43,280 nt of DNA from Deltaproteobacteria bacterium (lineage in GTDB: Bacteria > UBA10199 > GCA-002796325 > 1-14-0-20-49-13): the NCBI GenBank assembly GCA_016180865.1, contig JACPAJ010000012.1, positions 1 to 43,280 of the forward strand. Direction: 5' to 3'. The notes beneath the pieces were generated by a model. That model searched no databases, was not told the origin of the DNA, and saw only the letters and a list, made by a program, of their open reading frames with translations. A program made the translations under genes and the position numbers. Below are positions 5,897-32,991 of this stretch, piece by piece; the stretch's first letter is position 1, and every line of letters starts with the position of its first letter.

Positions 5897-5938
5897 TTGC
5901 TATCGTATAATATTTAGCCAAAAAAATCAACTAAATAG

Positions 5939-7192: not shown

Positions 7193-7208
7193 GTTAGTTC
7201 TCCTTTTG

Positions 7209-8438: not shown

Positions 8439-8461
8439 TTTGTTCTCCTCCCTCATTTTTT

Positions 8462-8482
8462 ATCACTAGTCACTAATCACTG
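8462..8482. repeat. Tandem heptamer repeat ATCACTA-GTCACTA-ATCACTG in the ftsQ-ftsA spacer
   Basis: Three consecutive 7-nt units read directly from the sequence. A GGCGCA...TGCGCC hairpin follows at 8491..8517. Confidence 0.7.
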
Positions 8483-8562
8483 TCTTTTACGGCGCACCTC
8501 CCGGCGGCCACTGCGCCTTCTGTAAGCGCACAACTTTCCTTTTTTCACCGGGCATTTTGACG

Positions 8563-9339: not shown

Positions 9340-9346
9340 ATTGTTT

Positions 9347-11625: not shown

Positions 11626-11630
11626 AAGCT

Positions 11631-13852: not shown

Positions 13853-13857
13853 ACGAG

Positions 13858-15084: not shown

Positions 15085-15104
15085 CTCCCCATCTCCCCAT
15101 CTTG

Positions 15105-16184: not shown

Positions 16185-16187
16185 TGT

Positions 16188-17624: not shown

Positions 17625-17627
17625 AAT

Positions 17628-19145
17628 TTACACATCCCTCGACAAGCTCGGGACAAGCTTGCGCACTTCTTCCCTGTCGTCAAAATGCCGGACTTCTTTT
17701 CCGACTATCTGATAAGTTTCATGCCCTTTGCCGGCTATAAGAACAATATCCCCTTCCTGCGCTTTTTCTATCGCGCAGCAAATTGCTTTTTTTCTGTCCT
17801 CTTCCACAAGATAACCGTGCCCGTTTGCCCCAAGAGTTTTCAGGCCGGATTTTTTTATCCCTGCTAGAATATCGGAAATAATTTTCGATGGATCTTCCGT
17901 CCTTGGATTGTCGCTTGTTACAATCACGATATCGCCCAAACTTGCGGCAACATTTCCCATAACCGGTCTTTTTGCTCTATCGCGGTCGCCTCCGCATCCA
18001 AAAACAATGATCAACTTGCCATGTGTCAGATTTTTAAGTGTTTCCGAAACCTTTTTGATTGCATCCGGCGTATGAGCATAATCGACAAAAACAGAAAACC
18101 CCTTTGGCGATCTTATCTCTTCAAGGCGCCCCGGAACAGAATCAAGAAGCTCGATTCCGTTTTTGATTTTTTCCAGCGGCACGCCGAGGCCTCCAAGAAG
18201 CGCTGTGGCGGCGGCAATATTTTGAGCGTTGAAATCTCCTTTAAGGCTCGTAAAACAACCAAGCGTTCCCCACGGCGACTTTATTTTAAGGCTGCTGCCG
18301 CCTTTCAAAGCTTTAAACTCCTCCACAAAAACATCCGCTTTGCTATTCGCGCCGAAAGAGAATGTATCAATTCCTTTATGTCTTTTTGCCGCGGCAAGAA
18401 TTTTCTGGCCGTACGGATCAAATGCGTTTGCAACCGCAACTTTTTGTTTTTTGGAAGATGCAGGCAGAAATTCCGAAAAAAGCAGGCTCTTGGCCTTGAA
18501 ATAGCCTTCCAAACCGTCATGATAATCCAAGTGATCATGGCTCAAGTTTGTAAAAAGCGCCGCGTCAAATTCTATCCCCTCTACGCGCCGCTGCTCGAGA
18601 GCGTGCGAAGAAACCTCCATAACAACATCTTTAACCGCAGCTTTCTGCATTTTACTCAATAATTTATGGAGATCATAGGACATCGGCGTGGTGTTTTGCG
18701 ATTCCAATTGGACGTCTTTATACCGGCAGTTGACTGTTCCGATGACTCCGGGATCGCGTTTCAAGCATTTTAACACCGATTCGATGATGTAAGTGATTGT
18801 AGTTTTGCCGTTAGTGCCCGTTATGCCCATTATTCTCATCATGGCTGACGGATTGCCGAAAAATTCGGATGATATTCTTGCAAGAGCGAGCGAAGTATCG
18901 GAGACAACTATATTGCAGGTTCCTTCCAGCGATCTGATCGGATGATCGCTCACTATGGCAGCCGCTCCTGCCCTGCAGGCTTCATTTATAAACTGGTGGC
19001 CGTCCGCGCGCGTGCCGCGAATCGCGACGAAGCAGGAGCCTTTTTTGACCCGTGCCGAATTATAGGCAATATCTTTTATATCGACATCGGAGAAGCCTAT
19101 AACCTCCTCGTGCTCCAGTTTTTTTATTAAATCTTTAACTTTCAT
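17628..19145 (-). CDS. murE: UDP-N-acetylmuramoyl-L-alanyl-D-glutamate--2,6-diaminopimelate ligase
   Basis: GTNGKTT P-loop and the DNPR motif (TSDNPRTEDP) typical of meso-DAP-adding MurE. Confidence 0.93.
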   Translation of the reverse strand: MKVKDLIKKLEHEEVIGFSDVDIKDIAYNSARVKKGSCFVAIRGTRADGHQFINEACRAGAAAIVSDHPIRSLEGTCNIVVSDTSLALARISSEFFGNPSAMMRIMGITGTNGKTTITYIIESVLKCLKRDPGVIGTVNCRYKDVQLESQNTTPMSYDLHKLLSKMQKAAVKDVVMEVSSHALEQRRVEGIEFDAALFTNLSHDHLDYHDGLEGYFKAKSLLFSEFLPASSKKQKVAVANAFDPYGQKILAAAKRHKGIDTFSFGANSKADVFVEEFKALKGGSSLKIKSPWGTLGCFTSLKGDFNAQNIAAATALLGGLGVPLEKIKNGIELLDSVPGRLEEIRSPKGFSVFVDYAHTPDAIKKVSETLKNLTHGKLIIVFGCGGDRDRAKRPVMGNVAASLGDIVIVTSDNPRTEDPSKIISDILAGIKKSGLKTLGANGHGYLVEEDRKKAICCAIEKAQEGDIVLIAGKGHETYQIVGKEVRHFDDREEVRKLVPSLSRDV

Positions 19146-19156
19146 TTTATCGTCTT

Positions 19157-21157
19157 CTATTCAAGCTGTTTAAAACTCACCCGAAAAGTTTCTCCCTCTT
19201 TAATCATGCTGCCTGGCGAAGGAATCTGGCTTACCGCAACGCCCGATCCCGCGATATCCAGCTTTATATTTGCCTGCCCCACAGACGCCATAACATCCCG
19301 GATCGTCACTCCCCTCACATCCGGCACCTGAAAATTGTTCTCATTAATTTTTTGAAATCGCCTGACTTCGGCATGTCCCGCCGTTATATCCCCGCGGCCG
19401 TCTTTTCCGGAGGCGACTACTTTTGAAAGCGGAGATGGAATATCCATGTGCTTCAAAGTCGCTTCCGTTATTTCGCGGAATGCCGGCGCGGAAACAACGC
19501 CGCCAAAATGAACCCCCGACGGCTCATCCAGCCCCACAAAGACTGCAATTTTAGGATCATTCGAAGGCGCAATTCCTACAAACGATGCGTAATATTTTCC
19601 GGCAACATAATGCCCCGCTCCTTCGACGACTTTTTGGGCAGTGCCTGTTTTGCCGGCAACCGGATATTCTTTGCTTGCGGCCCTTGTGCCTGTTCCGCCC
19701 TGGCCCACAACGCGTTCCAGCATGCCTATCATTGTTGAAGCATTAGCGCTGCTGATCGGCTCGGAAACCAAAGTAGGTTCGGCATTATAAATCAGCATTC
19801 CCTGATTATTGACGGTATGATCCACAACATAAGGTTTCAGCCGTTTTCCGCCGTTTGCGATAGAAGCAAACGCCGTCGCCATTTGAACGGGCGTAACGCT
19901 TATTCCCTGTCCGAACGCAATCGTTGCAAGTTCAACCGGCTGCCATGTTGAAGCGTCTCTGACTATTCCGCCAATTTCACCGGGATAATCTATTCCGGTT
20001 TTTGAGCCTATGCCGAATTTTTTAAGATATTCATATAATCTTTCTCTGCCTACTTCGCGGGCAATTTTTGCGGCGCCGATATTGCTTGAAACTCTGATAA
20101 TATCTTTAACGGAAAGTTTTCCATAAGAATCGTGGTCGTGGAGCACAGCTTTTCCGACGGTCATCGCCCCGTTTTCGCAATCAAAAATCTCTTCCGGCGT
20201 CACAACTCCGGCATCCAGAGCCGAAGCGACGATTAAAACTTTGAATGTCGAACCGGGCTCGATTGTGTCGGTTACAGCCCTGTTTCTCCACATATCCTGC
20301 TTGTATTTTGAATATTCGTTTGCATCGAACGTCGGCATGTTGGACATAGCCAGAACTTCTCCGGTTTCGATATCCAGCACGACCGCCGAGCCGCCTTTAG
20401 CGCCTGCCGATTCGACCGCTTTCTGAAGCGCATTTTCGGCCGCAAACTGAATCTGCTTGTCGATTGTAAGATAAACATCGTTTACATCATCCTGCTCTTC
20501 ATATGCGACCGGCGATATATAAAATTTTCCGCGGGCATCGCGCCTGTAAACAGCTTCTTTTTTATGGCTTTCGAGGAATTTATCGGCAGCAAGCTCTATG
20601 CCAGCAAGAGCTTCGGATTCCATTCCGACCGCGCCAAGGAGATGGCTGGCGAGGGAGCCGTTGGGATAAAATCTTCTGCTCTCTTCAATGGAATAGATTC
20701 CACGCATTCCTTTAACGGCCTCCAACACCTCACGATCGACAAATCTTTTCAGCCAGACGAATTTTTTCGGGGATTTTAATTTTTCCGACAGTTCTTTTTC
20801 ATTCAATCCAAGGACATCGGCCAATTTTTTTATCTCCTCTTCGCTCAGCGAAACGCTCCTCGGATCCGCATATATTGACGGCACGGGAAGGCTTATTGCA
20901 AGCTCATCGCCGTTCCTGTCTAAAATACGGCCCCTCCTTGAACTCTGCGGTATTTTTGCCTGATATTGTTTGGAAGCAACCCACCCAAGCGCCGTATTTT
21001 TAATGCAGTGCAGTTCCAGCGCTCTGCCGATAACAATCAAAAAACCGATTCCAACGGCTATAACCACAATCTGAAGCCTGAGCTTTATCCGCGTTTCGCG
21101 CCGAAGCTCTTCGCTGAGCTGCGACTTGATCTTTCTTATGTTCAATCCTTGTCTCAT
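19157..21157 (-). CDS. ftsI: Division-specific class B penicillin-binding protein (FtsI) with a C-terminal PASTA-like domain
   Basis: N-terminal TM segment, dimerisation domain, transpeptidase motifs (STFK, KTGT). The last ~60 aa (VPDVRGVTIRDV...SQIPSPGSMIKEGETFRVSF) look like a PASTA domain. Confidence 0.9.
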   Translation of the reverse strand: MRQGLNIRKIKSQLSEELRRETRIKLRLQIVVIAVGIGFLIVIGRALELHCIKNTALGWVASKQYQAKIPQSSRRGRILDRNGDELAISLPVPSIYADPRSVSLSEEEIKKLADVLGLNEKELSEKLKSPKKFVWLKRFVDREVLEAVKGMRGIYSIEESRRFYPNGSLASHLLGAVGMESEALAGIELAADKFLESHKKEAVYRRDARGKFYISPVAYEEQDDVNDVYLTIDKQIQFAAENALQKAVESAGAKGGSAVVLDIETGEVLAMSNMPTFDANEYSKYKQDMWRNRAVTDTIEPGSTFKVLIVASALDAGVVTPEEIFDCENGAMTVGKAVLHDHDSYGKLSVKDIIRVSSNIGAAKIAREVGRERLYEYLKKFGIGSKTGIDYPGEIGGIVRDASTWQPVELATIAFGQGISVTPVQMATAFASIANGGKRLKPYVVDHTVNNQGMLIYNAEPTLVSEPISSANASTMIGMLERVVGQGGTGTRAASKEYPVAGKTGTAQKVVEGAGHYVAGKYYASFVGIAPSNDPKIAVFVGLDEPSGVHFGGVVSAPAFREITEATLKHMDIPSPLSKVVASGKDGRGDITAGHAEVRRFQKINENNFQVPDVRGVTIRDVMASVGQANIKLDIAGSGVAVSQIPSPGSMIKEGETFRVSFKQLE

Positions 21158-21170
21158 ATATTTAAAAAGC

Positions 21171-21530
21171 CTAGGGCTTAATAAGCACTATCTGGTCGCT
21201 GGCGGGCGGCTGCATCGAAAGTTTCGTTTTTGCAATATTTTCAAGCCGCGCGGGCGATTTCAGTTTTGCAATTTCAATCTCCAGCATGGAAGCCTGTTTT
21301 CCAAGCTCATCGGTTGTCCGCTTTAAAGCCGATGTTTCATAGCCAAGCTGCACAACCTGCACGCGCGACCAGACATAAAAAAGAGCCAGCGCAGTTATAA
21401 AAAGAAGCCAGAGCACCCACCTCTTCACGAATTTATTCTGCACCGCGGTTGCCTTTGCTCCGACGCCCTGTTTTTGCAGCAGCCTGTGCGCAGGCGAATA
21501 ATTTATATAGTCTGCGGAAATTTGAGACAT
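21171..21530 (-). CDS. ftsL: Cell division protein FtsL
   Basis: Small bitopic protein with a coiled-coil segment, between rsmH and ftsI. The start is uncertain because it overlaps the rsmH end by 28 nt. Confidence 0.75.
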   Translation of the reverse strand: MSQISADYINYSPAHRLLQKQGVGAKATAVQNKFVKRWVLWLLFITALALFYVWSRVQVVQLGYETSALKRTTDELGKQASMLEIEIAKLKSPARLENIAKTKLSMQPPASDQIVLIKP

Positions 21531-22399
21531 ATAGCCCTTAATTTAGCGCTGCGCGCTCTTGGGTTGTTTTTTGTTTCTTCCTCGGCCGGCGGAACCGGCT
21601 TTTTTGTTAAAATCTCTGCTTTGCCGCCGGCTGAAAATTCCTTGAATCTGTTTTTAACCAGCCTGTCTTCAAGCGAATGATAGCTTACAATCACAACCCG
21701 CCCTCCGATTTTTAAACACTCGGGAGCATCGCAGAGGAATTGCTCCAAATTATCAAGCTCCCCGTTTACGGCTATTCTCAGCGCCTGAAACACGCGCGTT
21801 GCAGGATGGGTTTTTGAATGACGCAAACCTTGCGGATAAGCTTTGTAGCAGATATTCTCTAATTCTTCCGTTGTTGTGATTGCCTTCATCCCCCGTTGCC
21901 CGACAATTTTTTCAGCTACCCTTCCGGCAAATTTTTCTTCGCCGAATTTCAAAAAAACTTCCTTCAGCTCATCTTTAGAATAAGCATTAACAATATATTC
22001 CGCCGTAAGGCCGGAATTTTTATCCATTCTCATATCCAAAGGGCCGTTTTTCATAAAACTGAAACCCCGCTCGCCGGTATCAATCTGCATGCTGGAAATT
22101 CCAAGATCCAGAACGATCCCGTCAAAAAGAATTCCCCATTCTTTGGACATCGCGGCAATTTCAGCGTAGCTTTTTCGTTCGATTTTTATTCTTTCTTTGA
22201 AAGCCGAAAGCCGCGCGCGCGATTCGTTCAGCGCCTCATCATCAATATCGATTCCGATGACTTTTCCATCCGGAGCGGATGCCTCAAGAATTTTTTCGGC
22301 GTATCCTCCGGCCCCGAGCGTGCCATCAAGATAAATTTTTCCGGATGCAGGCGCCAGATATTCGATCACTTCTTTTAAAAGAACGGGAATATGCTTCAT
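21503..22399 (-). CDS. rsmH: 16S rRNA (cytosine1402-N4)-methyltransferase
   Basis: HIPVLLKEV N-terminus and SAM-binding motifs, second gene of the dcw cluster. Confidence 0.93.
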   Translation of the reverse strand: MKHIPVLLKEVIEYLAPASGKIYLDGTLGAGGYAEKILEASAPDGKVIGIDIDDEALNESRARLSAFKERIKIERKSYAEIAAMSKEWGILFDGIVLDLGISSMQIDTGERGFSFMKNGPLDMRMDKNSGLTAEYIVNAYSKDELKEVFLKFGEEKFAGRVAEKIVGQRGMKAITTTEELENICYKAYPQGLRHSKTHPATRVFQALRIAVNGELDNLEQFLCDAPECLKIGGRVVIVSYHSLEDRLVKNRFKEFSAGGKAEILTKKPVPPAEEETKNNPRARSAKLRAICLKFPQTI

Positions 22400-22402
22400 C
22401 TT

Positions 22403-22843
22403 CTAAAGTCCTAAATCCGCAAGTTTATCTCCCATCAGCTCCAGTTTCTTTTGCGATTGTTCAAAAGACTGCTGCCATCTTTCGCGCGACCAGATTTCAA
22501 TCCGCATCGTCATGCCGACAAGCACCACGTCTTTGGTAATGCCCGCATATTCGCGAAGCGTAATTGGGATCTGAATCCGGCCGCTTTTATCCACCGGAGC
22601 TTCGCAAGCCGCGGAGATAAAAACGCGCTGAAGAGCTTTTACTTCGTCTTTAAATTGAGGGAGAGACGCAACCTTATTTTCCACCTTCTGCCATTCTGCG
22701 GCAGGATATGCCCAGAGGCAGTTGTCAAAATTAGTGATAATTAATCTTTCATCGTAGCTCGTCGACAAAATTTCGCGGAATTTGGATGGAATAGAAAGCC
22801 GGCCTTTTGAATCTATCGCATGCTCAAATCTACCCCTAAACAT
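22403..22843 (-). CDS. mraZ: Transcriptional regulator MraZ
   Basis: MFRGRFEHAIDSKGRLSIP with duplicated SpoVT/AbrB-like halves. Start set at ATG 22843, which is preceded by GGAGG. Confidence 0.92.
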   Translation of the reverse strand: MFRGRFEHAIDSKGRLSIPSKFREILSTSYDERLIITNFDNCLWAYPAAEWQKVENKVASLPQFKDEVKALQRVFISAACEAPVDKSGRIQIPITLREYAGITKDVVLVGMTMRIEIWSRERWQQSFEQSQKKLELMGDKLADLGL

Positions 22844-22905
22844 GTTAACCTCCATCGCCTTCAAACCCGCTTCAGACTTGAAAAATCGTTGATTTTCAAT
22901 CGGTT

Positions 22906-23188: not shown

Positions 23189-23276
23189 GGAGAGATGGCC
23201 GAGTGGCTTAAGGCGCCCGCTTGGAAAGCGTGTGTACCGCAAGGTACCGTGGGTTCGACTCCCACTCTCTCCGCCA
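23189..23276 (+). tRNA. tRNA-Ser (anticodon GGA), type II with long variable arm, CCA encoded
   Basis: Hand-folded cloverleaf: acceptor GGAGAGA/TCTCTCC, 3-bp D stem, anticodon loop TTGGAAA, variable arm GTACC-GCAA-GGTAC, T arm GTGGG-TTCGACT-CCCAC. One C-U mismatch in the anticodon stem. Confidence 0.9.
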
Positions 23277-23281
23277 ACCAA

Positions 23282-24294
23282 GGGGTCAAGTATTGACTTT
23301 TCACTTTTGATTTGTTAGAAACATGTCATGTCGCGCCCTCTTCGCATTCAATATGCTGGAGCTGTTTATCATGTTATGAACCGTGGAAATGCCCGTCAGG
23401 ATATTTTCGGGCACACAAATCACTACCAATTATTCATTCGTTGCATGTCAGAAATGATCAATTTATGGGAATTAAAATTGCATGCGTTCAGCCTAATGCC
23501 CAACCATTATCATCTATTGATCGAAACGCCCATGGGCAACTTGTCGCGAGCCATGCGGCACTTGAACCATGTGTACACTCAACGCTTTAACCGATTAACA
23601 GGTCGCGATGGCCATCTGTTCAGAGGTCGATATAAATCTATTCTTATAGAGGAAGACGCTTATTTGATAGAATTGTTGCGCTATATTCATCTTAATCCGG
23701 TAAGAGCAGGTATGACAAAAAGACCGGAGCAGCACAGATGGACGTCACACCATTATTATCTTAAAGGGACTGAAACAGGCTTTCTAACGACCACACGCCT
23801 TCTCGAATATTTTGGAAGACGAAGGAATTTGGCGCGAAGGAAATTGCATGAGTTTGTCATGTCCGGTGTGCCGATAGAATTGGAAAAACGTTTATCCGGT
23901 CAGAAATGGCCGTCGGTTTTAAGTAGTGCAAATTTTGAAGAATGGGTCCATTGGAATTTTGTGAAGGATTTGGATGATGAACAGTTGGAATACGTTCCGA
24001 ATCATAATCAGCAAGTTGCAGAAGAATCTCTGCAAAAGATTCTTTGTAAGATATTCGAAACGAATTGGCCATCCCTAAAGAAGCCTCAAGGACACGAACA
24101 ACAAAAGAGGCGTGCCCAAGCAATATGGTTTTATAGGCGTTATTTAAAACTGGGATATAATGAGCTCTCAAAAATATTTGGGCTTGTGCCATCAAGGATA
24201 TCTAAGATCATGAGCAAAAATGACATGGTGTCATCGGAACTCAATGAACAAGTAGTGCTATCCTTGAAAAAGTGAAAAGTCAATACTTGACCCC
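23282..24294 (+). mobile_element. IS200/RAYT-like unit: Y1 transposase gene bounded by perfect 27-bp inverted repeats
   Basis: GGGGTCAAGTATTGACTTTTCACTTTT at 23282..23308 is the exact reverse complement of 24268..24294. Each arm contains a GTCAA-GTA-TTGAC mini-hairpin. The left arm starts 6 nt after the tRNA CCA end. Confidence 0.8.
23328..24275 (+). CDS. HUH/Y1 (IS200-like, REP-associated tyrosine transposase-like) protein with a C-terminal DnaA domain IV-like HTH
   Basis: HUH motif NHYHLLI, catalytic Tyr context LRYIHLNPVRAG, and a C-terminus (RRAQAIWFYRRYLKLGYNELSKIFG...SRISKIMSK) resembling the DnaA C-terminal HTH. Confidence 0.85.
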   Translation: MSRPLRIQYAGAVYHVMNRGNARQDIFGHTNHYQLFIRCMSEMINLWELKLHAFSLMPNHYHLLIETPMGNLSRAMRHLNHVYTQRFNRLTGRDGHLFRGRYKSILIEEDAYLIELLRYIHLNPVRAGMTKRPEQHRWTSHHYYLKGTETGFLTTTRLLEYFGRRRNLARRKLHEFVMSGVPIELEKRLSGQKWPSVLSSANFEEWVHWNFVKDLDDEQLEYVPNHNQQVAEESLQKILCKIFETNWPSLKKPQGHEQQKRRAQAIWFYRRYLKLGYNELSKIFGLVPSRISKIMSKNDMVSSELNEQVVLSLKK

Positions 24295-24414
24295 TATTCC
24301 TATTACCCCTATTCAAATCCTTTTGCCACCGCAAGAAAGGCCGATGGTTCATCGCCACCCGCTTTTTTATAAAATTCCAACGCACTAGCAAGATCAAGAA
24401 CTGCGCGGCCCAAT

Positions 24415-24999
24415 TTATTTTCCTTTTTTTGTGCCATACAACACCCCCATAAAATATGACCATGAGTTTGAATTGCCGGCAAGGAAAATCGGCTCGTAGT
24501 CTATTCCCAGAAGAAACCATGCCGGCGCAACATCTAAGTTTACAAAATCGACTTCACGCGGAAGCTTGTCCACCTCCTCATCAACAGTTCGTTTTAATTT
24601 AAGGAATGCTTCTCCGGTTAAGGCGCGCCCTCCCCTTGTTATGCACAAATCCCAGTCAGAATATTTACGATTATTCCCCTTGGCGCGCGATCCCAAAAGT
24701 CCAACGGCAATTTCCAAGTCAACTGAACAGAGTTTTTTAACGACCGGAATAATTTCTTCAATATCGTCCGTCTTTTGAGCAGAAAAAGGAGATAAAATAG
24801 ATAAAGGATCAATCTGAAGGGTATCGCAAATAACGTAATACGTCTCCGAAAATGGGCCTCCATTTCCTTTGAGATAATTATTTATAGTTGACCTATTAAA
24901 CCCGTGCGCTTTGGCAAACTCCGTAACGTGCGCATATCCCCTTTGGGTTATGATCTGCTTCAGTTTTGCGGCATCAATATGATATCTCATTAACTGCAT
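24415..24999 (-). CDS. XRE-type HTH fused to a minimal nucleotidyltransferase (MNT-like) domain
   Basis: N-terminus has the HTH (YAHVTEFAKAHGFNRSTINNYLKG). The C-terminus has GSRAKGNNRKYSDWDL (GS-x10-DxD) and a later VDFVNLD acidic motif. Confidence 0.8.
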   Translation of the reverse strand: MQLMRYHIDAAKLKQIITQRGYAHVTEFAKAHGFNRSTINNYLKGNGGPFSETYYVICDTLQIDPLSILSPFSAQKTDDIEEIIPVVKKLCSVDLEIAVGLLGSRAKGNNRKYSDWDLCITRGGRALTGEAFLKLKRTVDEEVDKLPREVDFVNLDVAPAWFLLGIDYEPIFLAGNSNSWSYFMGVLYGTKKGK

Positions 25000-25026
25000 T
25001 ATATCCCAAATCGCGAGCCTATGTCA

Positions 25027-25056
25027 ATTATTTTATATATATGTATATTATTTTAT
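25027..25056. promoter_or_regulatory. Direct repeat ATTATTTTAT-N10-ATTATTTTAT in the divergent promoter region
   Basis: Identical 10-mers at 25027..25036 and 25047..25056, 20 nt start to start, between the HTH-NTase gene and the 281-aa ORF. Candidate operator. TTGACT-N16-TATAGC further downstream could drive the plus-strand gene. Confidence 0.35.
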
Positions 25057-25156
25057 GCACACACTTAATAAACGTTATCAGGCACCTTTTATAAAATAAC
25101 TTGACTTATTCGACGCCTGCAATATAGCTAGCGCCGTCCTTAGAAAGGAGTTTAAA

Positions 25157-26002
25157 ATGGCAAATCCAATAGGTGTCCGCAAGATAGTAATACACGATGA
25201 AAAGGGAGCATCTCGTACATATGAAGTTCCAGTGGAACTTAGCACAGATCCAGCAATTTCCTTTCTTGATACAGCCAAACCAATTGGCGTTCTAGATGAA
25301 TCCGATGCTCCTAAAGATATTCTTTGGCATTTGGTCGGCTATGTTGGCAATAGAATGTTTGCGATAGAACAAAACCGCGAGATGGTGCGGAAAATTGATG
25401 AGTTAAATGCAGAATTAGAACCGTTGATGAATCGCGTGGCGATGGTTCATCTTCTTGCCAAGAAGGTTGACACAAATGACAAATCTAACCGTGGCCTCTT
25501 TGTTGATTATGACGATAGCGACCATCTCTCTGGCCACGTTCTCTACCATGTGTCGGACCAAAACATAGATAGATTTATAAAACTTGCTGGGGCTGATGGA
25601 AAATTAATAGAGACCGAGGTGCCTGTGTATGACCAGTCCAATGGTAACGCTCTTAGTTACACGTGGTCATATAAGACAGGCTCCCAGCTAGAAAAAGATC
25701 TTAATTTGATGAAAGTGAAAATGGCTGCCTTCTTTTCACAATATGGATGGGATGGTTCACTTGAAAGAATAACGCCGCCTTCGGATAAAGTAGATATCGC
25801 AACATTGCCGCAGTTACGCCGTCTGCGTGATCTGTGGAACCCGATTGCAACTTATATTAATGAAGAGCCTTATTATGGAATATACGGTAAGCCATCAGTA
25901 GGAATTCTGGTCATGCAGTTTGATAGCCCTGCACCAATTGTTGATTTGGATGGCGGTGCGGTTCACAAGCGGACAGAGTCAGACTTTTCTCTTCTTAACT
26001 AA
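25157..26002 (+). CDS. Hypothetical protein, 281 aa, no recognisable motif
   Basis: Long ORF with AAAGGAG 8 nt upstream of the ATG, followed by a strong palindrome. I recognise no family. Confidence 0.7.
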   Translation: MANPIGVRKIVIHDEKGASRTYEVPVELSTDPAISFLDTAKPIGVLDESDAPKDILWHLVGYVGNRMFAIEQNREMVRKIDELNAELEPLMNRVAMVHLLAKKVDTNDKSNRGLFVDYDDSDHLSGHVLYHVSDQNIDRFIKLAGADGKLIETEVPVYDQSNGNALSYTWSYKTGSQLEKDLNLMKVKMAAFFSQYGWDGSLERITPPSDKVDIATLPQLRRLRDLWNPIATYINEEPYYGIYGKPSVGILVMQFDSPAPIVDLDGGAVHKRTESDFSLLN

Positions 26003-26021
26003 GTGTCAGACACTTAGTTAA
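25995..26021. terminator. Perfect 27-nt palindrome (13-bp arms) overlapping the stop codon of the 281-aa ORF
   Basis: TTAACTAAGTGTC-A-GACACTTAGTTAA followed by a T-rich stretch. It is either a terminator or a protein-binding palindrome. Confidence 0.55.
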
Positions 26022-26039
26022 TCTTGCATGTTTTTCTTT

Positions 26040-26070
26040 CTGGACAAAATCGCGTAACTCGTTATATTTA
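26040..26070 (+). promoter_or_regulatory. Promoter/operator-like module, copy C (TGGACA-N16-TATATT)
   Basis: 27 of 31 nt identical to the first 31 nt of copy B. Contains TAAC-NN-GTTA between the -35 and -10 hexamers. Lies 47 nt upstream of the HEPN start. Confidence 0.6.
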
Positions 26071-26116
26071 CAAAATAAAGAGGGTTTGTGTGGGCTCTCA
26101 TCGGAGACCAATATCT

Positions 26117-26518
26117 ATGAAACTCGATTTTAGTTCCCTGAAAAAGGCCATCAAAAGCCTGGGCAAGGCCATTGCCAGAACGCAAAAAGAGCCGTTGGAC
26201 GAGGAGTTGCGTGACGCTGTTATTCAGCGTTTTGAATACACTTATGAACTCGCTTGTAAAATGATGAAGCGTCAAATAGAGCAAGAATCCCCGAATCCAT
26301 CCGGAATTGACCAGCTGTCATTCAAAGATCTGCTTCGAACGGTGGCCGAAAAAGGAATTATTACGGACGTTGAGGCATGGCTAGTTTATAGAGACCAGAG
26401 AAATATCACCTCGCATACTGATGACGAGGCCGAGGCCAAAAGCGTTTATGAAACAGCTTTAAAGTTTCATAAAGATGCAGAGGCCTTGTTCTCAAATCTA
26501 GAGAAACGCAAATCATGA
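26117..26518 (+). CDS. HEPN-domain protein, HI0074-type nucleotidyltransferase substrate-binding family (putative toxin)
   Basis: RNITSH matches the Rx4H HEPN motif and the architecture is HI0074-like. Start placed at ATG 26117 (MKLDFSS). The track start at 26024 would run through the promoter module. Confidence 0.85.
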   Translation: MKLDFSSLKKAIKSLGKAIARTQKEPLDEELRDAVIQRFEYTYELACKMMKRQIEQESPNPSGIDQLSFKDLLRTVAEKGIITDVEAWLVYRDQRNITSHTDDEAEAKSVYETALKFHKDAEALFSNLEKRKS

Positions 26519-26844
26519 TCGATATTCCTCATAAACACTTAGAAACAATTATAGCCATCCTCTCAAAATACGTACCCGAACATGAAGTCTGGGCATTTGG
26601 TTCACGGGTTAATCAAAAACCAAAAAAATATGCCGATCTCGACATTGCGATCAAAACCAGCGCCCCGTTACCGGCAGGAACTCTCGCCCTTTTGCGCGAT
26701 GCCTTTTCGGAATCGAACCTGCCATTTAAAGTTGACGTTGTCGACTGGTCAAAAATCAGCAAAGATTTTCAAAAAATCATTGAGGAAAAATTTGAAGTTG
26801 TTCAAGGTAACAAAAGCGTATCTGTGAAAAGGGGGTCAAAATGA
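26515..26844 (+). CDS. Minimal nucleotidyltransferase (MNT, HI0073-type; putative antitoxin)
   Basis: GSRVNQKPKKYADLDI (GS-x10-DxD). ATGA start/stop overlap with the HEPN gene. Confidence 0.88.
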   Translation: MIDIPHKHLETIIAILSKYVPEHEVWAFGSRVNQKPKKYADLDIAIKTSAPLPAGTLALLRDAFSESNLPFKVDVVDWSKISKDFQKIIEEKFEVVQGNKSVSVKRGSK

Positions 26845-27161
26845 AATTAGGCATCATCCTTGAAACAAAGGAATATGAAAAGGCTTGGAACGCATTCAGA
26901 TTTGCAACGGCTTCAAAGAAAGCCGGCCATGAAGTAAAAATCTTTTTAATGGGCGAGGCTGTCGAATGTGAAAATATTACCCACGAAAAATTTGACGTTG
27001 CGGGACAATTGAAGATTTTCGTCGAATCCGGAGGAACAATCCTTGCTTGCGGCACCTGTCTTAAATCCCGCACGATGAAAGCTACCGAGGTTTGCCCTAT
27101 GTCAATGATGATTGACTGCGTAAAAATGGTTGAATGGGCGGATAGAGTGATAAGTTTTTGA
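26841..27161 (+). CDS. DsrE/DsrF-like sulfur-relay family protein
   Basis: 106 aa with an MKLGIIL... Rossmann-like start and the ACGTCLKSR motif typical of the DsrE family. ATGA overlap with the MNT gene. Confidence 0.7.
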   Translation: MKLGIILETKEYEKAWNAFRFATASKKAGHEVKIFLMGEAVECENITHEKFDVAGQLKIFVESGGTILACGTCLKSRTMKATEVCPMSMMIDCVKMVEWADRVISF

Positions 27162-27175
27162 GCCGTAATCGTCTT

Positions 27176-27210
27176 GGGCTTTTTAGCCCGCCACTAAGGC
27201 GTCGACCGGC
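27176..27210 (+). repeat. Decayed copy of the GCCCGCCACTAA hairpin element
   Basis: GCCCGCCACTAA at 27186..27197 is identical to 28100..28111, but the 3' arm is degraded (CGACCGGC versus TGGCGGGC). It is preceded by a GGGCT-TTTT-AGCCC mini-hairpin. Confidence 0.5.
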
Positions 27211-27217
27211 ACAAATT

Positions 27218-28045
27218 ATGACTAAGATTTCAGAGACAGCTTTTCTTGTAAATTATTTGCGCTCCAAGAATAAAGAATTGAGCGGAGATATTTACTCTGA
27301 CCTTTGGATTGAAGAGACAACATCTGAACTAGCTGAAGAGTTTCAAAGAGAGATAAACCCGCTAGAGTCATACCAATTAAGCCTCCGTCATCGTTTCTTT
27401 TTAGAGTGGGTAAAAAAAGCTATCGCTCAAGGAGTTGAGCGAGTAATCAATGTAGGTGCTGGATTCTCAACTTATACTCATTTGGTCGAGCCACCAATTC
27501 CGACCTGTGATGTTGATTATCAGCATATCGTTGCTTACAAAGCGCAGAAGCTAAAGGAGTTCGAAACAAAGAAGTTAATTCCACATCGTGAAATCGTATT
27601 TCTACCTACCGATTTAAATAATTCCAAGAGCCTCGATAAAATGAAGGAGCAACTTAAGAAATGGGTCATAACAGAAAAATCTTTGGCGATATTGGAAGGT
27701 ATCACCTACTATCTTAATAAACAGCAACTGGATAGAGTTTTTAATGTTCTCTCTAAAATTCAATCTAAAGGTAGTTTAATAGCCGTCCTTTATTGGAAAC
27801 CAGATGCAATAGATAATTCAGTTTTTAAAAAATGGATTCCCTTTGCCAAGAAAAACTATAGTTATGATCCCACCGGCTATACATATCTAACAAAGGGTTA
27901 TTTTGAAGAGTTAGATGGCTATCATATCGTGGACTTTGCAACCTACTTTGATCTTGAAAAGAGGTTTGCTAAGAACAATCGTATTAGGAAAAACAACGAT
28001 AACGTATTTCCCGAAGACTTTGTTGTATTGGAGAAAGTTAGATAA
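27218..28045 (+). CDS. Class I SAM-dependent methyltransferase, LCMT/TcmP-like
   Basis: ISETAFLVNYLRS N-terminus, VINVGAGFSTY SAM motif, CDVDYQHIV and LAILEGITYYL blocks typical of the leucine carboxyl methyltransferase-like family. ATG 27218 preferred over TTG 27158. Confidence 0.8.
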   Translation: MTKISETAFLVNYLRSKNKELSGDIYSDLWIEETTSELAEEFQREINPLESYQLSLRHRFFLEWVKKAIAQGVERVINVGAGFSTYTHLVEPPIPTCDVDYQHIVAYKAQKLKEFETKKLIPHREIVFLPTDLNNSKSLDKMKEQLKKWVITEKSLAILEGITYYLNKQQLDRVFNVLSKIQSKGSLIAVLYWKPDAIDNSVFKKWIPFAKKNYSYDPTGYTYLTKGYFEELDGYHIVDFATYFDLEKRFAKNNRIRKNNDNVFPEDFVVLEKVR

Positions 28046-28053
28046 TCTTTTAC

Positions 28054-28104
28054 TGGACAAACTTGTGTAACTGGTCATATTTAGGCTGGATTTAGCTTGC
28101 CCGC
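28054..28104 (+). promoter_or_regulatory. Promoter/operator-like module, copy A (TGGACA-N16-CATATT)
   Basis: 47 of 51 nt identical to copy B at 29988..30038. Confidence 0.6.
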
Positions 28105-28143
28105 CACTAAACCGTTGGCGGGCGATTCGCCTTTGGCGAATCG
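28100..28143 (+). repeat. Two adjacent perfect hairpins (GCCCGCCA-N9-TGGCGGGC and GATTCGCC-TTT-GGCGAATC)
   Basis: 8-bp stems read directly from the sequence. The first is the same element as 1865..1889. They abut the tRNA fragment. Confidence 0.8.
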
Positions 28144-28183
28144 GAGGGGTGTCTGAGCGGCTTAAAGAGCTGGTCTTGAAAAT
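28144..28183 (+). pseudogene. 5' half of a tRNA-Ser(UGA), ending in the anticodon loop
   Basis: 30 of 40 nt identical to the 5' half of the tRNA at 30544. The last 11 nt, GGTCTTGAAAA, are identical. The D stem carries compensatory changes (TCT/AGA versus ACC/GGT). No 3' half follows. Confidence 0.8.
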
Positions 28184-28380
28184 CTTTTAGGGGGTATTTA
28201 AAAAGGTGAAGGATATCAACAATAACCAAGCAATAACAAAAACTAAGCCCACTTTTCGATTACTGTAAACTACCGCCCTTTACTGGGGATTATTTTTAAA
28301 AATATTTAAAAAAATAAGATACATCCTACGGTGAAAAACTCTTGATGTGTTTAATATTAAGAGATAGCTGTAAATGGAAA

Positions 28381-29157
28381 ATGTTACGATTTGTTTACAT
28401 ATTTGTAATAAGCTCCTTTCTCTTACCGTTAAACGTTCAAGCCGATGACTTTTGGAGTTTAAAAAATATAAATGCTACAAAGCAAGGCATTAAAAACATA
28501 TCACAAACTGTTCATAGATGCTCCGTTGGCCTAAATGGATATTTCAAGAATAAACCTGAACACCTTGTAATCATAACCTATGGAGATAGAGATTCTTTCG
28601 TCAAAGGCTTAGTAAGCGAATTAGGCTTTTCCGTTCAGACAGCAGAATATTTTAGAAAAAGTAGTGCCCCTAGACCTATAAATGGTAAAATGTTGGTACC
28701 TCCAGACCAGCTTTTAGAAAATGTCTGTCATGAAGTAGTACATTACTATTTAGAAAGTACTACGAATAGGGATAATTTATTAAAAGCAAAATGGTTTGAC
28801 GAGGGCACAGCTTCATATCTTGCGGCAATTATCGTCAAGCCAGAATCTATTGATGAAATAATAAAATACTTTAAGAAAACATATGGAAATAATTTTATCC
28901 CTCTTTCAAAAATAGAAACGGAACATGATTGGCATCAATTACATCAAAACATGGAGAGTAGAAACAAAGCATATCTGCAAGCAATGACACAGATGAAATA
29001 TTTCTTTGATAACTATTCGGTATCCCAGTTTAATGAGATTTTGAGTCTTATGAATACTTCAACTTTTAATCAGGCATTTAAAATGATTACAGGTTTGTCG
29101 TCAAAGAAGTTTTATCGCAACTGGATAAAGTGGATGTCTAAAACGGAGAATATATGA
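28381..29157 (+). CDS. Secreted peptidase MA-like (gluzincin) protein
   Basis: Signal peptide MLRFVYIFVISSFLLPLNVQA. HEVVHYYL...WFDEGTASYL matches the HExxH...EG-x-A-x-Y layout of the peptidase_MA_2 type. Upstream TTG/ATG starts at 28342/28345 are possible. Confidence 0.75.
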   Translation: MLRFVYIFVISSFLLPLNVQADDFWSLKNINATKQGIKNISQTVHRCSVGLNGYFKNKPEHLVIITYGDRDSFVKGLVSELGFSVQTAEYFRKSSAPRPINGKMLVPPDQLLENVCHEVVHYYLESTTNRDNLLKAKWFDEGTASYLAAIIVKPESIDEIIKYFKKTYGNNFIPLSKIETEHDWHQLHQNMESRNKAYLQAMTQMKYFFDNYSVSQFNEILSLMNTSTFNQAFKMITGLSSKKFYRNWIKWMSKTENI

Positions 29158-29966
29158 ATCAAAAGAACAATAACACCGATTATCTTAAAAAGCTTGAGAC
29201 TGCTACAGGCGATTTGAAACAGATGAGCGATAAACTATTTGATATGGCTCTCCATCTTGCACTTACTGGAAAGTGGAACAATTGGGAAGAATCAATGCCT
29301 ATCGGTACTACCACTACATTTAATGAAGAAATGCTATTCAAAACAGGTGATGAGTTTATATCAAATTTAACCCGTTTGAGAATGGACTTGCTTAGCGAAG
29401 TTGACCGAATAAAATCCTACTTGGGCAATCAGAAAAAATCGCTACCAATAACAAAACCTTTATTAACAGGCCACAAAACAATAGATAAAGCCACCGGTGG
29501 CTTGAAATGTGGAGATGTCATAGCTTTAGCGGGGGCATCAAATAAAGAAACCGCCTTGAAAGTGATTACGAAGGTAGCTTTACAGGATAAAGTAAACTGT
29601 GGGATATTTTCGCTGGAGAAAAATAAGGAAAAGCTAGTTAAACAGATGCTAAGTATTGGTTCTAAAGTCGGTCTAAATAAAATTACAGGAGGTAGAATAG
29701 CATCTAATGATTGGCCTAAACTAGATAATGCCGCTGACAAGCTATCTACGTCTCCAATCTATATCAAAGACAATATTTCATCTGAACGAGAAATGTCAGA
29801 TTCTACCAGTAAGGCTAAAATAAAACTGGGGCTAATAATGGTGAAAGCTCATAACAAATCTATTCCTGTCAAATCCCTTAAAAACATCGCAACTAATTTG
29901 CAGATACCGATTATAGTAACAACAAAAAAGCCCGTGCATGATTTCGACACGGTAATAAATGTGTAG
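29154..29966 (+). CDS. DnaB C-terminal-domain-like protein with degenerate Walker A and Walker B motifs
   Basis: GHKTIDKATGGLKCGDVIALAGASNKETAL aligns with DnaB G-x-TGF-x-LD-x-T-x-GL-x-GDLII-x-ARPSMGKTAF, with GKT replaced by KET. The Walker B position reads LIMVKAHNK instead of LIVIDYLQL. ATGA overlap with the peptidase gene. Confidence 0.7.
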   Translation: MNQKNNNTDYLKKLETATGDLKQMSDKLFDMALHLALTGKWNNWEESMPIGTTTTFNEEMLFKTGDEFISNLTRLRMDLLSEVDRIKSYLGNQKKSLPITKPLLTGHKTIDKATGGLKCGDVIALAGASNKETALKVITKVALQDKVNCGIFSLEKNKEKLVKQMLSIGSKVGLNKITGGRIASNDWPKLDNAADKLSTSPIYIKDNISSEREMSDSTSKAKIKLGLIMVKAHNKSIPVKSLKNIATNLQIPIIVTTKKPVHDFDTVINV

Positions 29967-29987
29967 AAAACTTCAATCGTTTTATCG

Positions 29988-30038
29988 CTGGACAAACTTG
30001 TGTAACTGGTTATATTTAAGCCGGATTTAGTTTGCCCG
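29988..30038 (+). promoter_or_regulatory. Promoter/operator-like module, copy B (TGGACA-N16-TATATT)
   Basis: See copies A and C. The TAAC-TG-GTTA palindrome overlaps the -10. Lies 20 nt upstream of the lipoprotein start, with AAGAGGA as the SD. Confidence 0.6.
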
Positions 30039-30057
30039 TCTCTAAGAGGAAATTATT

Positions 30058-30534
30058 ATGGATCATAGAACCCTGATTTTGGTGGTGATGTTATTTGCAG
30101 TGCTTGCAGGATGCAGTCAATCTGAAAATATAACAGGTAAGGATAACCTGAGTTTGGCTAAGTCATCTTGCATTAGCAATTATGGCAGGTGGGATGAAAA
30201 GGCAGAGAGCTGTATTAGTGCCCCAACTAATGAATCTGATTGCAATAAGGAAGAAGGAGTTTGGCATAACGCCAATACCGAAAAAGGAATCGAAAAAAGC
30301 CTTCCATCCAAAATTACCCAATCATATTGTGAATTACCTGCAACGGATACAGGCAAAACATGCAAAGACAAATCAGAATGTGACAAATATTGTAAACCAA
30401 TATGCACAAATGGCGCTGAAGATTGTGCTTTGAATGAAATGAATAAGGAATATGGTGAATGCGCTAAATTTTTCGATTTATATGGCGGATATTCATGGAA
30501 CGACGGAGAAGTTGTGGAATGGCGAACATATTAA
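30058..30534 (+). CDS. Cysteine-rich lipoprotein, unknown function
   Basis: Lipobox LAGC after a hydrophobic signal. The mature part has many Cys residues. Good SD. Confidence 0.75.
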
Positions 30535-30543
30535 TTTTTCCTT

Positions 30544-30628
30544 GGAGAGGTGACCGAGTGGTTGATGGTGCCGGTCTTGAAAACCGGTGTGCAGAAATGT
30601 ACCGGGGGTTCAAATCCCTCCCTCTCCG
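30544..30628 (+). tRNA. tRNA-Ser (anticodon UGA), type II, no encoded CCA
   Basis: Acceptor GGAGAGG/CCTCTCC, D stem ACC/GGT, anticodon stem CCGGT/ACCGG with loop CTTGAAA, long variable arm, T loop TTCAAAT. Confidence 0.9.
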
Positions 30629-32991
30629 TTTGCTCCTGAAGGGGGTGAACGGAGGGGCTCCTGATTTGCTCCTGTGCTTAGGAAATGCGCGCCTTCGACT
30701 TTGGAACCATTGGAAGAATAGTTAACGTTTATCCTGCCATCGTCTTCTATATATAATTCGCTGGCGACGTCGACTGGAGGCGCAATTACTTCCGCCTTTT
30801 TCCCGATTTCATCGCACCATTGCCGGATCTTATCTGCAAGCTCATGGCCTGTGCTGCAGCCCAGAAGTATAATTCTTCCTCCGTCTTTCACCTTATTTAA
30901 GTACGTCTTGATTTCTTCATCGCTCACGTCAATTTTCGAGAGCTCATTATCATAACTTTCGCTGAGCGCAAAATCTTTTGCAGAGCCATGCCCTCCAAGA
31001 ACAAGAGCATCTACCGAATTATCGTCTTCTTTCGCCAAGGCTTCATATAACTCCGTTTCACTGTATGGCTCGGCAATCTCCAAGTTATATTTTTCAATAA
31101 TTTTATCGACGCCTTGCGCCGCAAATGCGCCGTTATGATCGTGTCCGGGCAAAGAAACGAAAGCACGAGGTTGATCATACACAGGATTTTTTATCTTTTT
31201 TACGATATCTTTATTGTATCTGCTCCAGTGAGATACTTTTTTATCATCCAGCCATTCGCAATCGGCTGCTGCTTCCGCCAAAGTTATTTTCCCGTCGAAA
31301 AATCCGGAATTATAAGCATACCCGAATAATTCAACTATGCGGTAATATCTGAATTTATTAACAACCTCCGGCCAAAGCGGATCGTTTTTCAACAGCGCTA
31401 GCTTATTATCATCAAGCAATTTAAAACCTGACATCGCTTTTGACAGATAACATTTATTAAAATACATAATATCCAAAAACATGCCCATTTCATCCCCGTT
31501 TTGGTAAACATCAAGTCTTGACGCAAAACTCATTAAATCTTCCAAATAATACGACTTGTTTCTGCCGTAAACCCCCATAAAACCGTTCACGGTATCAATG
31601 ATAAGATCATCCTTGATTTTATAATCTCTCATTCTCTTGATGCAGGAGTTAATCGAGCGAAGGCTTGGAAACCCGAGCGAAATAATGTCGGCGAATCTCT
31701 CTTTTGCTTCAGAAGAAACATTCATTTCTTTTAATTGGCCAAAAAGTTCTTTTAGCTCTCCTTCGGAGAAATCATATTTATAAGATGACGCTTGCACAGC
31801 CCAGCAAAGTCTCTTATCTTCAGGAACAATACCTTCTGCCACTTCAAACGCTCTCGGTATAACATTAAAATTTTTCCCACTGAAAAAACACACTTTAATA
31901 ATTCTTCGAAGTTGTTCTTTATCTTTGGAAATATTTTTCAGCCATTTTACATTATCAGCAAACGTCGAAAATGGAAAACCAGCGTAAGAATCGCCAACAT
32001 CCCCTGCTGCTAAATATTTTTTTAAATCCGCAACGGGATCCAGTTCGGCCAGCATCAATCCCTCCGCAACCTTTGGGATTGAATCTATTATTTGACCGGC
32101 CGCAAAATATCGCGAGGCGGATTTTATTATTATCTTGATATCTTCTTCTCCAACACCCCTCTCTCTTAAATATCTGACTGCTGATTCTAACCTGCCATCG
32201 AATATGCAAAGGCCGTTAAGATGCTCTCTTTTTTCCTCCAGTGCAGCTCTTACAAATGAAGCTAATTCAAAACTGTCGAAAAGCTTTAGCCCGGCATTTA
32301 TAGAAATCATGTCTTCCGCATATTTCAAAGCAAAAGGATCTCTTTTGATTATCTCTTTTATTTCGGCATCGGTCAGCCCCAAACCGGAATATGCGCCGAT
32401 GGCGCCTTGCAAATGCCCGGCTAATACGGTCACAGAAAAAGGGCCTTCGACGATTATCGATTTTAAGAATCCTTTCTTTTCGTCTTCGGAATTAAACTTC
32501 AATTTGCCAAGAGCTTCATAAGCCTTGGTTATCATTCCTCCTTCACCAGCACGGTATGCATAATAACCCGCTCCATCAACGATTTGAGATTCAGAGAGGC
32601 CGATAAGACCAAACTCCGGAACCCGTTCAGCTATCGGCTTCAGATAGTTTTTTATCCCCTCATCATAATTCGACTCCTCCCTATTAACGATAAACCCTGA
32701 AAGGAGAAAAAGTTTTTCATAAGGGTCGGCGATAGAACACTTTTCCAGCTCTGCATTGAACCTGCTAAGTAGATTTTTGGAAAATATCTTTGAAACAGCA
32801 CGCTCTTCCAAAGGAGAGTTTTTGAAGCTAAGATATTCTTCAAGCGTAATAATTTTATCCCCGTTCGCATCCGCCAAAGAAATATCCGATTTCCCATCGG
32901 CATGCTGGAGCTCCGCCTCATCAATCCTAAAATCCTCATTAGAATCAACCGGTTGGAAGCTTTTCAGTATCTCTCTGATATACGTAGTCAT
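30610..32991 (-). CDS. Large (793 aa) multidomain protein: N-terminal EF-hand-like loop, C-terminal His/Cys module (caspase/CHAT- or DUF4347-like)
   Basis: [12 protein letters not shown] fits most EF-hand loop positions. The C-terminus has ALVLGGHGS ... [14 protein letters not shown], the beta-strand-His ... beta-strand-Cys layout of caspase-fold/CHAT-like domains. The last 19 nt overlap the tRNA-Ser gene on the opposite strand. Confidence 0.7.

Follow-up and report, generated by a model that had tools for sequence, protein, structure and literature searches.

Bacterial tRNA genes are transcribed from sigma-70 promoters with an A/T-rich upstream element, and the short leader of the transcript is removed by RNase P. 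In Streptococcus thermophilus, the integrative and conjugative elements and cis-mobilizable elements (ICE/CIME) include remnants that are flanked by attachment (att) sites, have no recombination genes and form accretion arrays; these elements exploit the 3' ends of tRNA or protein-coding genes, possess defined att cores and have been shown to excise in trans. Islands with a 5' fragment of a tRNA gene (tDNA) are rare, with 159 of 3919 in Islander; a 5' fragment should lie on the upstream side of the tRNA gene, with matching orientation, and the anticodon loop is a classic crossover site of tDNA integrases (PMC4383910). Here we analyse a locus in a 43,280-nucleotide stretch of DNA from a Deltaproteobacteria bacterium (contig JACPAJ010000012.1, assembly GCA_016180865.1; the whole stretch is referred to as the window), in which three copies of a 31-nt promoter-like module lie between two tRNA-Ser genes, tRNA-Ser(GGA) and tRNA-Ser(UGA). 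We propose, with a probability of about 0.6, that the module is the promoter of tRNA-Ser(UGA) and that its copies were left when foreign DNA was repeatedly inserted at the 5' side of this gene.

The locus shares part of the signature by which Islander recognizes such islands. A tRNA-Ser(UGA) fragment extending from the 5' end to the anticodon loop (28143-28182) lies upstream of the intact gene (30544-30628) on the same strand; a tyrosine integrase inside the island, another part of the signature, was not found among the ORFs at 23328-30534.

A module shared with tRNA-Ser(UGA) genes

The module, CTGGACAAA-N5-GTAACT-N-GTYATATTTA, occurs three times in the window, starting at 26040 (copy A), 28053 (copy B) and 29988 (copy C), always on the + strand. 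The copies are recovered both by pattern, with exact matches of TGGACAAA-N5-GTAACT-N-GTYATATTTA at 26041, 28054 and 29989 (+; 0.00 expected from shuffles), and by a profile hidden Markov model (HMM), which gives them E values of 3e-13 to 7e-16. The next HMM match has E > 3, and there are no weaker copies in the 43-kb window. An initial annotation of this DNA had counted the same three copies, and its two identity figures also hold, although they had been assigned to the wrong pairs: 47/51 positions (92.2%) are shared by the copies at 28053 and 29988, which remain 90% identical over 58 nt, and 27/31 by those at 26040 and 29988.

Each copy reads as a sigma-70-type promoter of the form TGGACA-N16-(T/C)ATATT, as had been proposed; the module comprises an A/T-rich upstream stretch, a TGGACA -35, a conserved GTAACT-N-GT spacer and a TATATT -10. 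Copies A and C (TGGACA-16-TATATT) match the consensus at 10 of 12 positions and copy B (TGGACA-16-CATATT) at 9 of 12. The hexamers alone are no proof of a promoter, because the region contains no more sigma-70-like hexamer pairs than chance predicts (17 against an expected 20). A sigma-54 reading of TGGAC-N-..GT was rejected by eye, the -12 GC being absent. Only the two tRNAs score with Rfam between 22.8 and 31 kb, and the module is thus no known RNA element.

A scan of public metagenomes with the module pattern gave six matches, four of which lie inside coding DNA and are attributed to chance. In the other two (L010 and L011) an intact tRNA-Ser(UGA) gene begins 15 and 45 nt, respectively, after the module, on the same strand. 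The order in L010 is module, 15-nt leader and tRNA, with no hairpin, and that in L011 is module, 15-nt leader, hairpin GCCCGCCA..TGGCGGGC, GAATC and tRNA, which is the layout of copy B and is unchanged in four further samples (L030-L033). The search pattern itself required GTAAC and GT; among the positions that it left free, C1, T20, T24 and TA30-31 are constant in L010 and L011, and five spacer positions and N21 vary. Since the same module precedes tRNA-Ser(UGA) in other organisms, we conclude that it is, with high confidence, a sigma-70-type promoter of this tRNA gene. In reference genomes the module pattern yielded only a chance match: among 185,579 species-representative genomes the pattern matches once, in Legionella steigerwaltii, inside a response-regulator-like open reading frame (ORF). 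Two scans of viral contigs gave only chance matches inside phage structural genes, so that no phage carrier is known.

The simple arrangement is also found in a relative that co-occurs in the source samples. A unitig in three source metagenomes joins a module copy, via GGCCAGATTTGG, to CTT and the tRNA at 30541, with a 15-nt leader and no hairpin. This module copy has 2-3 mismatches to the L030 promoter over 49-50 nt, and the last 19 nt of copy A are identical to the copy lying directly 5' of the tRNA in the relative.

Further module-like copies are present in runs X1-X3 (contigs of 1903, 826 and 151 nt), with 5-6 mismatches over 26029-26070 and followed by AAYAAGRTTGTTACGAGCATGAGAATGGAG; the 30 nt 5' of these copies resemble the upstream sequence of the L011 promoter, as judged by eye and with no alignment statistic. 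They suggest another lineage in which the promoter precedes something other than the tRNA. Runs X5 and X6 contain low-coverage pieces of the same genome and add nothing new.

A half tRNA behind copy B and an intact tRNA behind copy C

Two features had escaped the initial annotation: a half tRNA that follows the copy at 28053, and the real tRNA-Ser(UGA) just behind the lipoprotein ORF (Table 1). The half tRNA (40 nt) is cut in the anticodon loop and gives way to unrelated sequence, and ARAGORN calls no tRNA at 28143-28182. It is 75% identical to the corresponding part of the resident gene (30544-30583), with which it has in common an identity block of 11 nt, GGTCTTGAAAA. The D stems differ in a compensated manner (UCU/AGA in the half tRNA, ACC/GGU in the resident gene, read from the sequence), and these differences, together with the 75% identity, argue that the half tRNA derives from another tRNA-Ser(UGA) gene, one that was formerly functional.

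Copy C retains only the 5' arm and the start of the loop of the REP-like (repetitive extragenic palindromic) hairpin that is complete behind copy B, the break lying within the loop at 30045. The lipoprotein ORF that follows stops 9 nt 5' of the tRNA. No other good promoter was found between 30060 and the tRNA, which is therefore most likely transcribed from promoter C through the lipoprotein ORF. The lipoprotein belongs to no Pfam family and is found on two Logan contigs only, both from the same population. At copy A the homology ends straight after TATATTTA and the HEPN/MNT/DsrE gene string comes next; a search for a tRNA remnant behind this copy gave nothing significant, the best score being reached by 119/3000 shuffles. 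The copies sit at joints between unrelated accessory gene blocks, as had been noted from the outset.

An independent view of the copy B arrangement comes from a sequence, L035, that was reached via the DnaB_C-like protein (64% identity, the only close homologue) and not via the module pattern. In L035 a module lies about 1 kb downstream of the DnaB_C-like orthologue (nhmmer E 9e-15). After it come the 15-nt leader and a degenerate 5' fragment of a tRNA-Ser, of the copy B type, whose score was reached by 0/2000 shuffles. The fragment ends at about the same place as that of copy B, with weak homology beyond (reached by 12/3000 shuffles), and the whole unit runs into a GIY-YIG gene within a defence-like island (SIR2, DpnII-type restriction-modification). 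Because the same combination recurs in L035, it suggests that the DnaB_C-like gene, the promoter and the 5' tRNA piece were the right end of one such element family.

Two other observations were made on L035. The Shine-Dalgarno sequence and start of the GIY-YIG gene (3185-3230) seem to be built from a decayed tRNA-Ser D-arm/anticodon region (TTTAAAGAGGTGTGTTTATG), and the sequence also holds a tRNA-Met followed by two 3'-fragment repeats.

As one of two accounts of the conservation beyond the hexamers, the initial annotation offered a shared operator, with the downstream gene groups under one repressor. In the form considered here, this repressor would bind the spacer GTAACT-N-GTTA and control the tRNA together with the HEPN/MNT operon and the remaining blocks, and selection would keep the copies alike. 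Such an operator would fit the constancy of the spacer positions in copies A, B and C, L010 and L011, where neighbouring positions vary, and the short TAAC-NN-GTTA palindrome overlapping the -10. However, GTAAC and GT were demanded by the search pattern, and the unforced L035 copy has a GCAAC spacer and ends in TATATTCA. The palindrome, which had been ascribed to all three copies, comprises 4+4 bp only and is present at 26040 and 29988 but broken at 28053 (GTCA). The similarity of copies B and C does not stop at the module but spans leader and hairpin (58 nt) and reaches a tRNA fragment, which points to descent and not to selection on an operator, and the 43 kb hold no further copies. The helix-turn-helix (HTH) nucleotidyltransferase encoded nearby, which had been put forward as a candidate binder, has 17-nt repeats of its own at 25020-25056, and the module is present on L011 and L030 but no homologue of the protein was detected on L011. 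The copies are better understood as homologous copies of the tRNA-Ser(UGA) promoter; common descent by duplication or insertion explains their similarity, no shared repressor is needed, and we consider joint repression very improbable. A regulator site inside the tRNA-Ser(UGA) promoter is possible but unsupported.

Proposed serial insertion at the 5' side of tRNA-Ser(UGA)

The best reading of the locus is as a decayed and rearranged tandem array of the rare tDNA islands that displace the 5' fragment of their target. Starting from a simple state of promoter, 15-nt leader and tRNA, low-GC foreign DNA would have been inserted several times 5' of tRNA-Ser(UGA), with crossover in the anticodon loop, and each inserted block would have brought or left a promoter, a leader and a 5' part of tRNA-Ser. 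In a 5'-fragment island the incoming DNA must supply the promoter, and this accounts for the promoter copies. Copy B and its half tRNA would be a displaced fragment. Copy C would now be the promoter of the reconstituted tRNA, with a lipoprotein gene that entered its leader at the REP-like hairpin, and copy A would be the outermost promoter, whose leader and tRNA part were lost and which became fused to the HEPN/MNT operon. That the insertions were serial, with each copy a relic of an island at the 5' side, we hold to be somewhat favoured over the contrary.

The present-day copies probably act as strong promoters. Copy A would drive the HEPN-MNT-DsrE(-methyltransferase) genes, and from copy B, with its weakened -10, transcription would cover the dead half tRNA and might continue into the genes beyond it. 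From copy C a lipoprotein-tRNA co-transcript would be made, out of which the tRNA would be cut.

Several points weigh against this reading. There is no tyrosine integrase between the two tRNA genes (ORFs 23328-30534; Pfam, NCBIfam and PADLOC), so that site-specific integration is deduced from the scar only. Simple integration predicts that the displaced fragment is the native 5' half, and the copy B fragment looks foreign; being only 75% identical as well, it calls for a history with at least two donors or for en-bloc transfer. Copy A is without leader or tRNA remnant, and a further deletion, or an event of another kind, has to be assumed for its joint. The cross-genome conservation of the module is partly imposed by the search pattern. 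The co-occurring relative is seen in short unitigs only and is not callable as an empty site, and an 826-nt contig from the same run has module sequence at its start and at its end, which suggests that the relative has two module copies 776 nt apart. Finally, no RNA run with this region was found, and promoter activity is predicted. A clean empty site for the right-hand blocks was not recovered from the source samples.

The lack of an integrase in the interval also speaks for a history with no site-specific recombinase, in which DNA taken up from relatives entered through homologous or homology-facilitated illegitimate recombination, with the conserved promoter and tRNA as anchor, or, in a variant, copies B and C arose by local segmental duplication followed by insertions, with no att-type mechanism. 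The 90% identity of copies B and C over 58 nt is sufficient for RecA-dependent exchange, and the REP-like hairpin is present at two joints. Unit B is also flanked by a direct repeat of 9 bp, AATCTTTTA (28044-28052 and 28181-28189; reached by 22/5000 shuffles), which looks like microhomology or a target duplication and not like an att core. Against such a history, the fragment ends exactly in the anticodon loop, with the 11-nt block GGTCTTGAAAA in common with the real tRNA, at a classic crossover site of tDNA integrases (PMC4383910), and the L035 fragment ends at about the same place. We regard the two recombinase-free versions, taken together, as unlikely but not negligible.

Serial insertion at the tRNA gene could be taken one step further, to a family of small integrase-less blocks that insert specifically between the promoter and body of tRNA-Ser(UGA) and are moved in trans by a recombinase encoded elsewhere. 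Crossover would fall either within the anticodon loop or at the hairpin of the leader. Every block would carry a promoter and a 5' half tRNA beside a DnaB_C-like gene, and each accessory or defence block would be served by a copy of a strong tRNA promoter. We rate this extension as improbable.

REP-like hairpins and a RAYT-like gene

The REP-like hairpin, GCCCGCCA-N9-TGGCGGGC (25 nt, G+C-rich), is found at 1865-1889 and 28099-28123, where 0.23 matches are expected from shuffles, and also in L011 at 12395-12419, within the tRNA-Ser(UGA) leader. It is the hairpin beside the module, and not the module, that corresponds to a REP element, a G+C-rich palindrome repeated between genes. The sole recombinase between the tRNA genes is a Y1 transposase (23328-24275) resembling the REP-associated tyrosine transposases (RAYT). 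It lies immediately 3' of tRNA-Ser(GGA) between perfect 28-bp inverted repeats (23281-23308 and 24268-24295), which differ from the tRNA-leader hairpin.

In the source samples, the REP-like hairpin and the second hairpin of the leader also occur directly 5' of a different tRNA gene (loose ends 28101/28141). A fourth, eroded promoter considered at 27162-27185, next to the degenerate hairpin, was rejected as its alignment to the module is no better than that of shuffles.

As an alternative to an operator, the initial annotation had suggested a recombination or mobilization sequence that sets the limits of cassettes. This is partly right, in that the copies lie at the borders of blocks, but the repeated unit looks like a duplicated target or attachment region (promoter and 5' part of a tRNA gene) and not like a dedicated integron-type site. 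With a dedicated site, a cassette-moving enzyme would act on the module or on the REP-like hairpin beside it, either as an integron-attC-like site or as a hairpin cut by the neighbouring RAYT-type Y1 transposase, and the blocks would be mobile cassettes. Besides the position of the copies, this idea can draw on the RAYT-like gene 2 kb to the left, which at 78 bits falls just short of the NF047646 cut-off of 80, and on the hairpin itself, which is broken in its loop at the lipoprotein joint (30045) and has a degenerate copy at another gene border (27186-27210). However, there is no IntI-type integrase, attC-like R''-L''/L'-R' repeats with a GTTRRRY core are absent from the module (read from the sequence), and the RAYT gene has its own, different 28-bp inverted repeats. 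Furthermore, the promoter is without the hairpin in L010 and in the co-occurring relative, and the single match to the module among the 185,579 species-representative genomes is a chance one inside a gene. A dedicated cassette site is thus hardly credible.

Organization of the locus and its surroundings

The features between the two tRNA-Ser genes are listed in Table 1. At the left edge, contig L005 of a metagenome-assembled genome (MAG), which is 99.6% identical over the shared 2.8 kb, diverges exactly at the 3' end of tRNA-Ser(GGA), with unrelated sequence beyond. The GC content is 32-40% at 27.6-30.4 kb, compared with 43-50% in the core of the dcw cluster. PADLOC calls no defence system and returns weak nucleotidyltransferase matches only, and exact-protein look-ups of the island proteins led to the same population only, or to nothing.

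Table 1. Positions of the tRNA genes, module copies and protein-coding genes of the locus in the window.
Feature	Position	Strand	Description	Assignment
tRNA-Ser(GGA)	23189-23276	+	left edge of strain-variable stretch	ARAGORN, Rfam
RAYT-like Y1 transposase gene	23328-24275		315 codons	Pfam Y1_Tnp; NCBIfam REP_Tyr_transpos/NF047646, 78 bits (cut-off 80)
Module copy A	26040-26070	+	-35 TGGACA 26041-26046; -10 TATATT 26063-26068	
HEPN (HI0074-type) gene	26117-26518	+	downstream of copy A	Pfam, NCBIfam
MNT nucleotidyltransferase gene	26515-26844	+	downstream of copy A	Pfam, NCBIfam
DsrE-like gene	26841-27161	+	downstream of copy A	Pfam, NCBIfam
Degenerate REP-like hairpin	27186-27210	+	no promoter 5'	alignment to copy B hairpin reached by 1/2000 shuffles
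LCM-family S-adenosylmethionine (SAM) methyltransferase gene	27218-28045	+	stop 7 nt before copy B	Pfam
Module copy B	28053-28083	+	promoter with weakened -10 CATATT (T-to-C at first -10 position)	
Copy B pre-tRNA leader	28084-28142	+	15-nt leader GGCTGGATTTAGCTT; REP-like hairpin 28099-28123; second hairpin GATTCGCC-TTTG-GCGAATC	
tRNA-Ser(UGA) pseudogene, 5' half	28143-28182	+	acceptor, D arm, anticodon stem and loop CTTGAAAA	
Secreted HExxH-like protein	28342-29157	+	lowest-GC block	
Short DnaB_C-like protein	29154-29966	+	lowest-GC block	
Copy C unit	29988-30045	+	module 29988-30018 (-35 29989-29994, -10 30011-30016); 15-nt leader 30019-30033; hairpin part 30034-30045	
Lipoprotein ORF	30058-30534	+	158 codons; lipobox LAGC; between promoter C and tRNA	
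Intact tRNA-Ser(UGA)	30544-30628	+		ARAGORN; Rfam 58.9 bits

The window methyltransferase has a 38%-identical homologue that adjoins the native tRNA-Ser(UGA) promoter in L011. Methyltransferases of the LCM family are found beside tRNA-Ser genes in three arrangements (L011 12537-13172, L021 611-1770 and window 27218-28045): in L011/L030 the gene and the tRNA-Ser(UGA) promoter are divergent, in L021-23 the gene lies downstream of tRNA-Ser(GCT), and in the window it lies upstream of the half tRNA. This proximity may be fortuitous, may reflect island cargo or may have a functional basis. The methyltransferase homologues were given up as a means of finding further loci, since only the L011 organism pairs the module with a methyltransferase; L020 has a homologue and no tRNA, and in L021-23 the tRNA-Ser(GCT) is without the module.

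The DnaB_C-like protein of the window is without the N-terminal helicase domain, and the context of the Walker A lysine is degenerate both there (AGASNKET, 29154-29966) and in L035 (GSSSNEA, 1230-2075); the short protein is unlikely to be active as a helicase.

A perfect TTGACA-18-TATAAT promoter precedes the HTH-nucleotidyltransferase gene (24415-24999, - strand) and is overlapped by two 17-nt direct repeats, TATGT(C/A)(A/T)ATTATTTTAT (25020-25056). These repeats are probably the operator of the HTH-nucleotidyltransferase itself, unrelated to the module.

On the left of tRNA-Ser(GGA), the order and sizes of the ORFs at 4073-22864 (- strand) suggest a complete dcw cluster (mraZ to ftsZ) ending just short of this gene. 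Its mraZ end alone is confirmed, by Pfam matches to MraZ, RsmH (Methyltransf_5), FtsL and the PBP dimer domain on near-identical contigs, and the rest is deduced. To the right of tRNA-Ser(UGA), a 793-residue protein (30610-32991, - strand) has faint EF-hand and mTERF-like matches only. The ORF as listed overlaps the tRNA 3' end by about 20 nt, so that translation probably begins further inside. Among 5.8 billion proteins this one has a single homologue (73% identity), on a contig that ends at the tRNA 3' end, and this neighbour was abandoned as a route to relatives for these reasons.

Discussion

We read the locus as one more case, if an unusual one, of something known, a 5'-fragment tRNA-gene island without an integrase, and not as a new regulatory system. 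What appeared as a regulon signal is a scar of genome history, which advises caution when regulons in MAGs are called from motifs. The locus is a record of those rare tRNA islands that replace the 5' part of the gene and must import a promoter. Among the consequences are a tRNA promoter joined to a toxin-antitoxin-like operon, a tRNA pseudogene that has kept a promoter of its own, and a presumably essential tRNA that can be reached only through a lipoprotein ORF. Were the blocks indeed mobilized in trans, accessory genes would spread together with ready-made strong promoters, as a promoter-bearing cassette system built on a tRNA gene.

The resemblance to integron arrays lies in the unrelated, promoterless-looking genes in one orientation with a repeated sequence between them. 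Here, however, the repeat is a promoter and tRNA leader and not attC, there is a promoter for each unit in place of one Pc, and IntI is absent. With REP/RAYT systems the locus shares a 25-nt G+C-rich hairpin repeated in intergenic DNA (1865, 27186, 28099) and a RAYT-like gene with inverted repeats in the same island, whereas the tRNA-leader hairpin differs from the repeats flanking the RAYT gene; the presence of the hairpin in the L011 leader also indicates that it is old and not a recent insertion.

As a tRNA promoter, the module is conventional in having -35 and -10 hexamers 16 nt apart, a T-rich stretch upstream and, in the simple form of L010 and the co-occurring relative, a predicted start about 10 nt before the mature 5' end. 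It is unusual in its TGGACA -35 and conserved GTAACT-N-GT spacer, and in that two of the three copies now face protein-coding genes. The ICE/CIME arrays are comparable in that short, integrase-less cargo blocks between repeated attachment-type sequences are stacked beside a conserved target gene. They differ in their use of 3' ends, their defined att cores and their demonstrated excision in trans.

The 5'-fragment islands of Islander differ from the locus in several respects. No integrase gene lies between fragment and tRNA here, and the interval is only 2.4 kb; fragment and resident gene represent different types of tRNA-Ser; and a protein gene lies between promoter and tRNA, while the outermost copy is without a tRNA part. 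The likeness nevertheless extends to the general plan, in which a full tRNA gene is preceded, in the same orientation, by a cognate end fragment that ends in the anticodon loop, with low-GC foreign genes between the two, and islands of this kind are known to stack in tandem.

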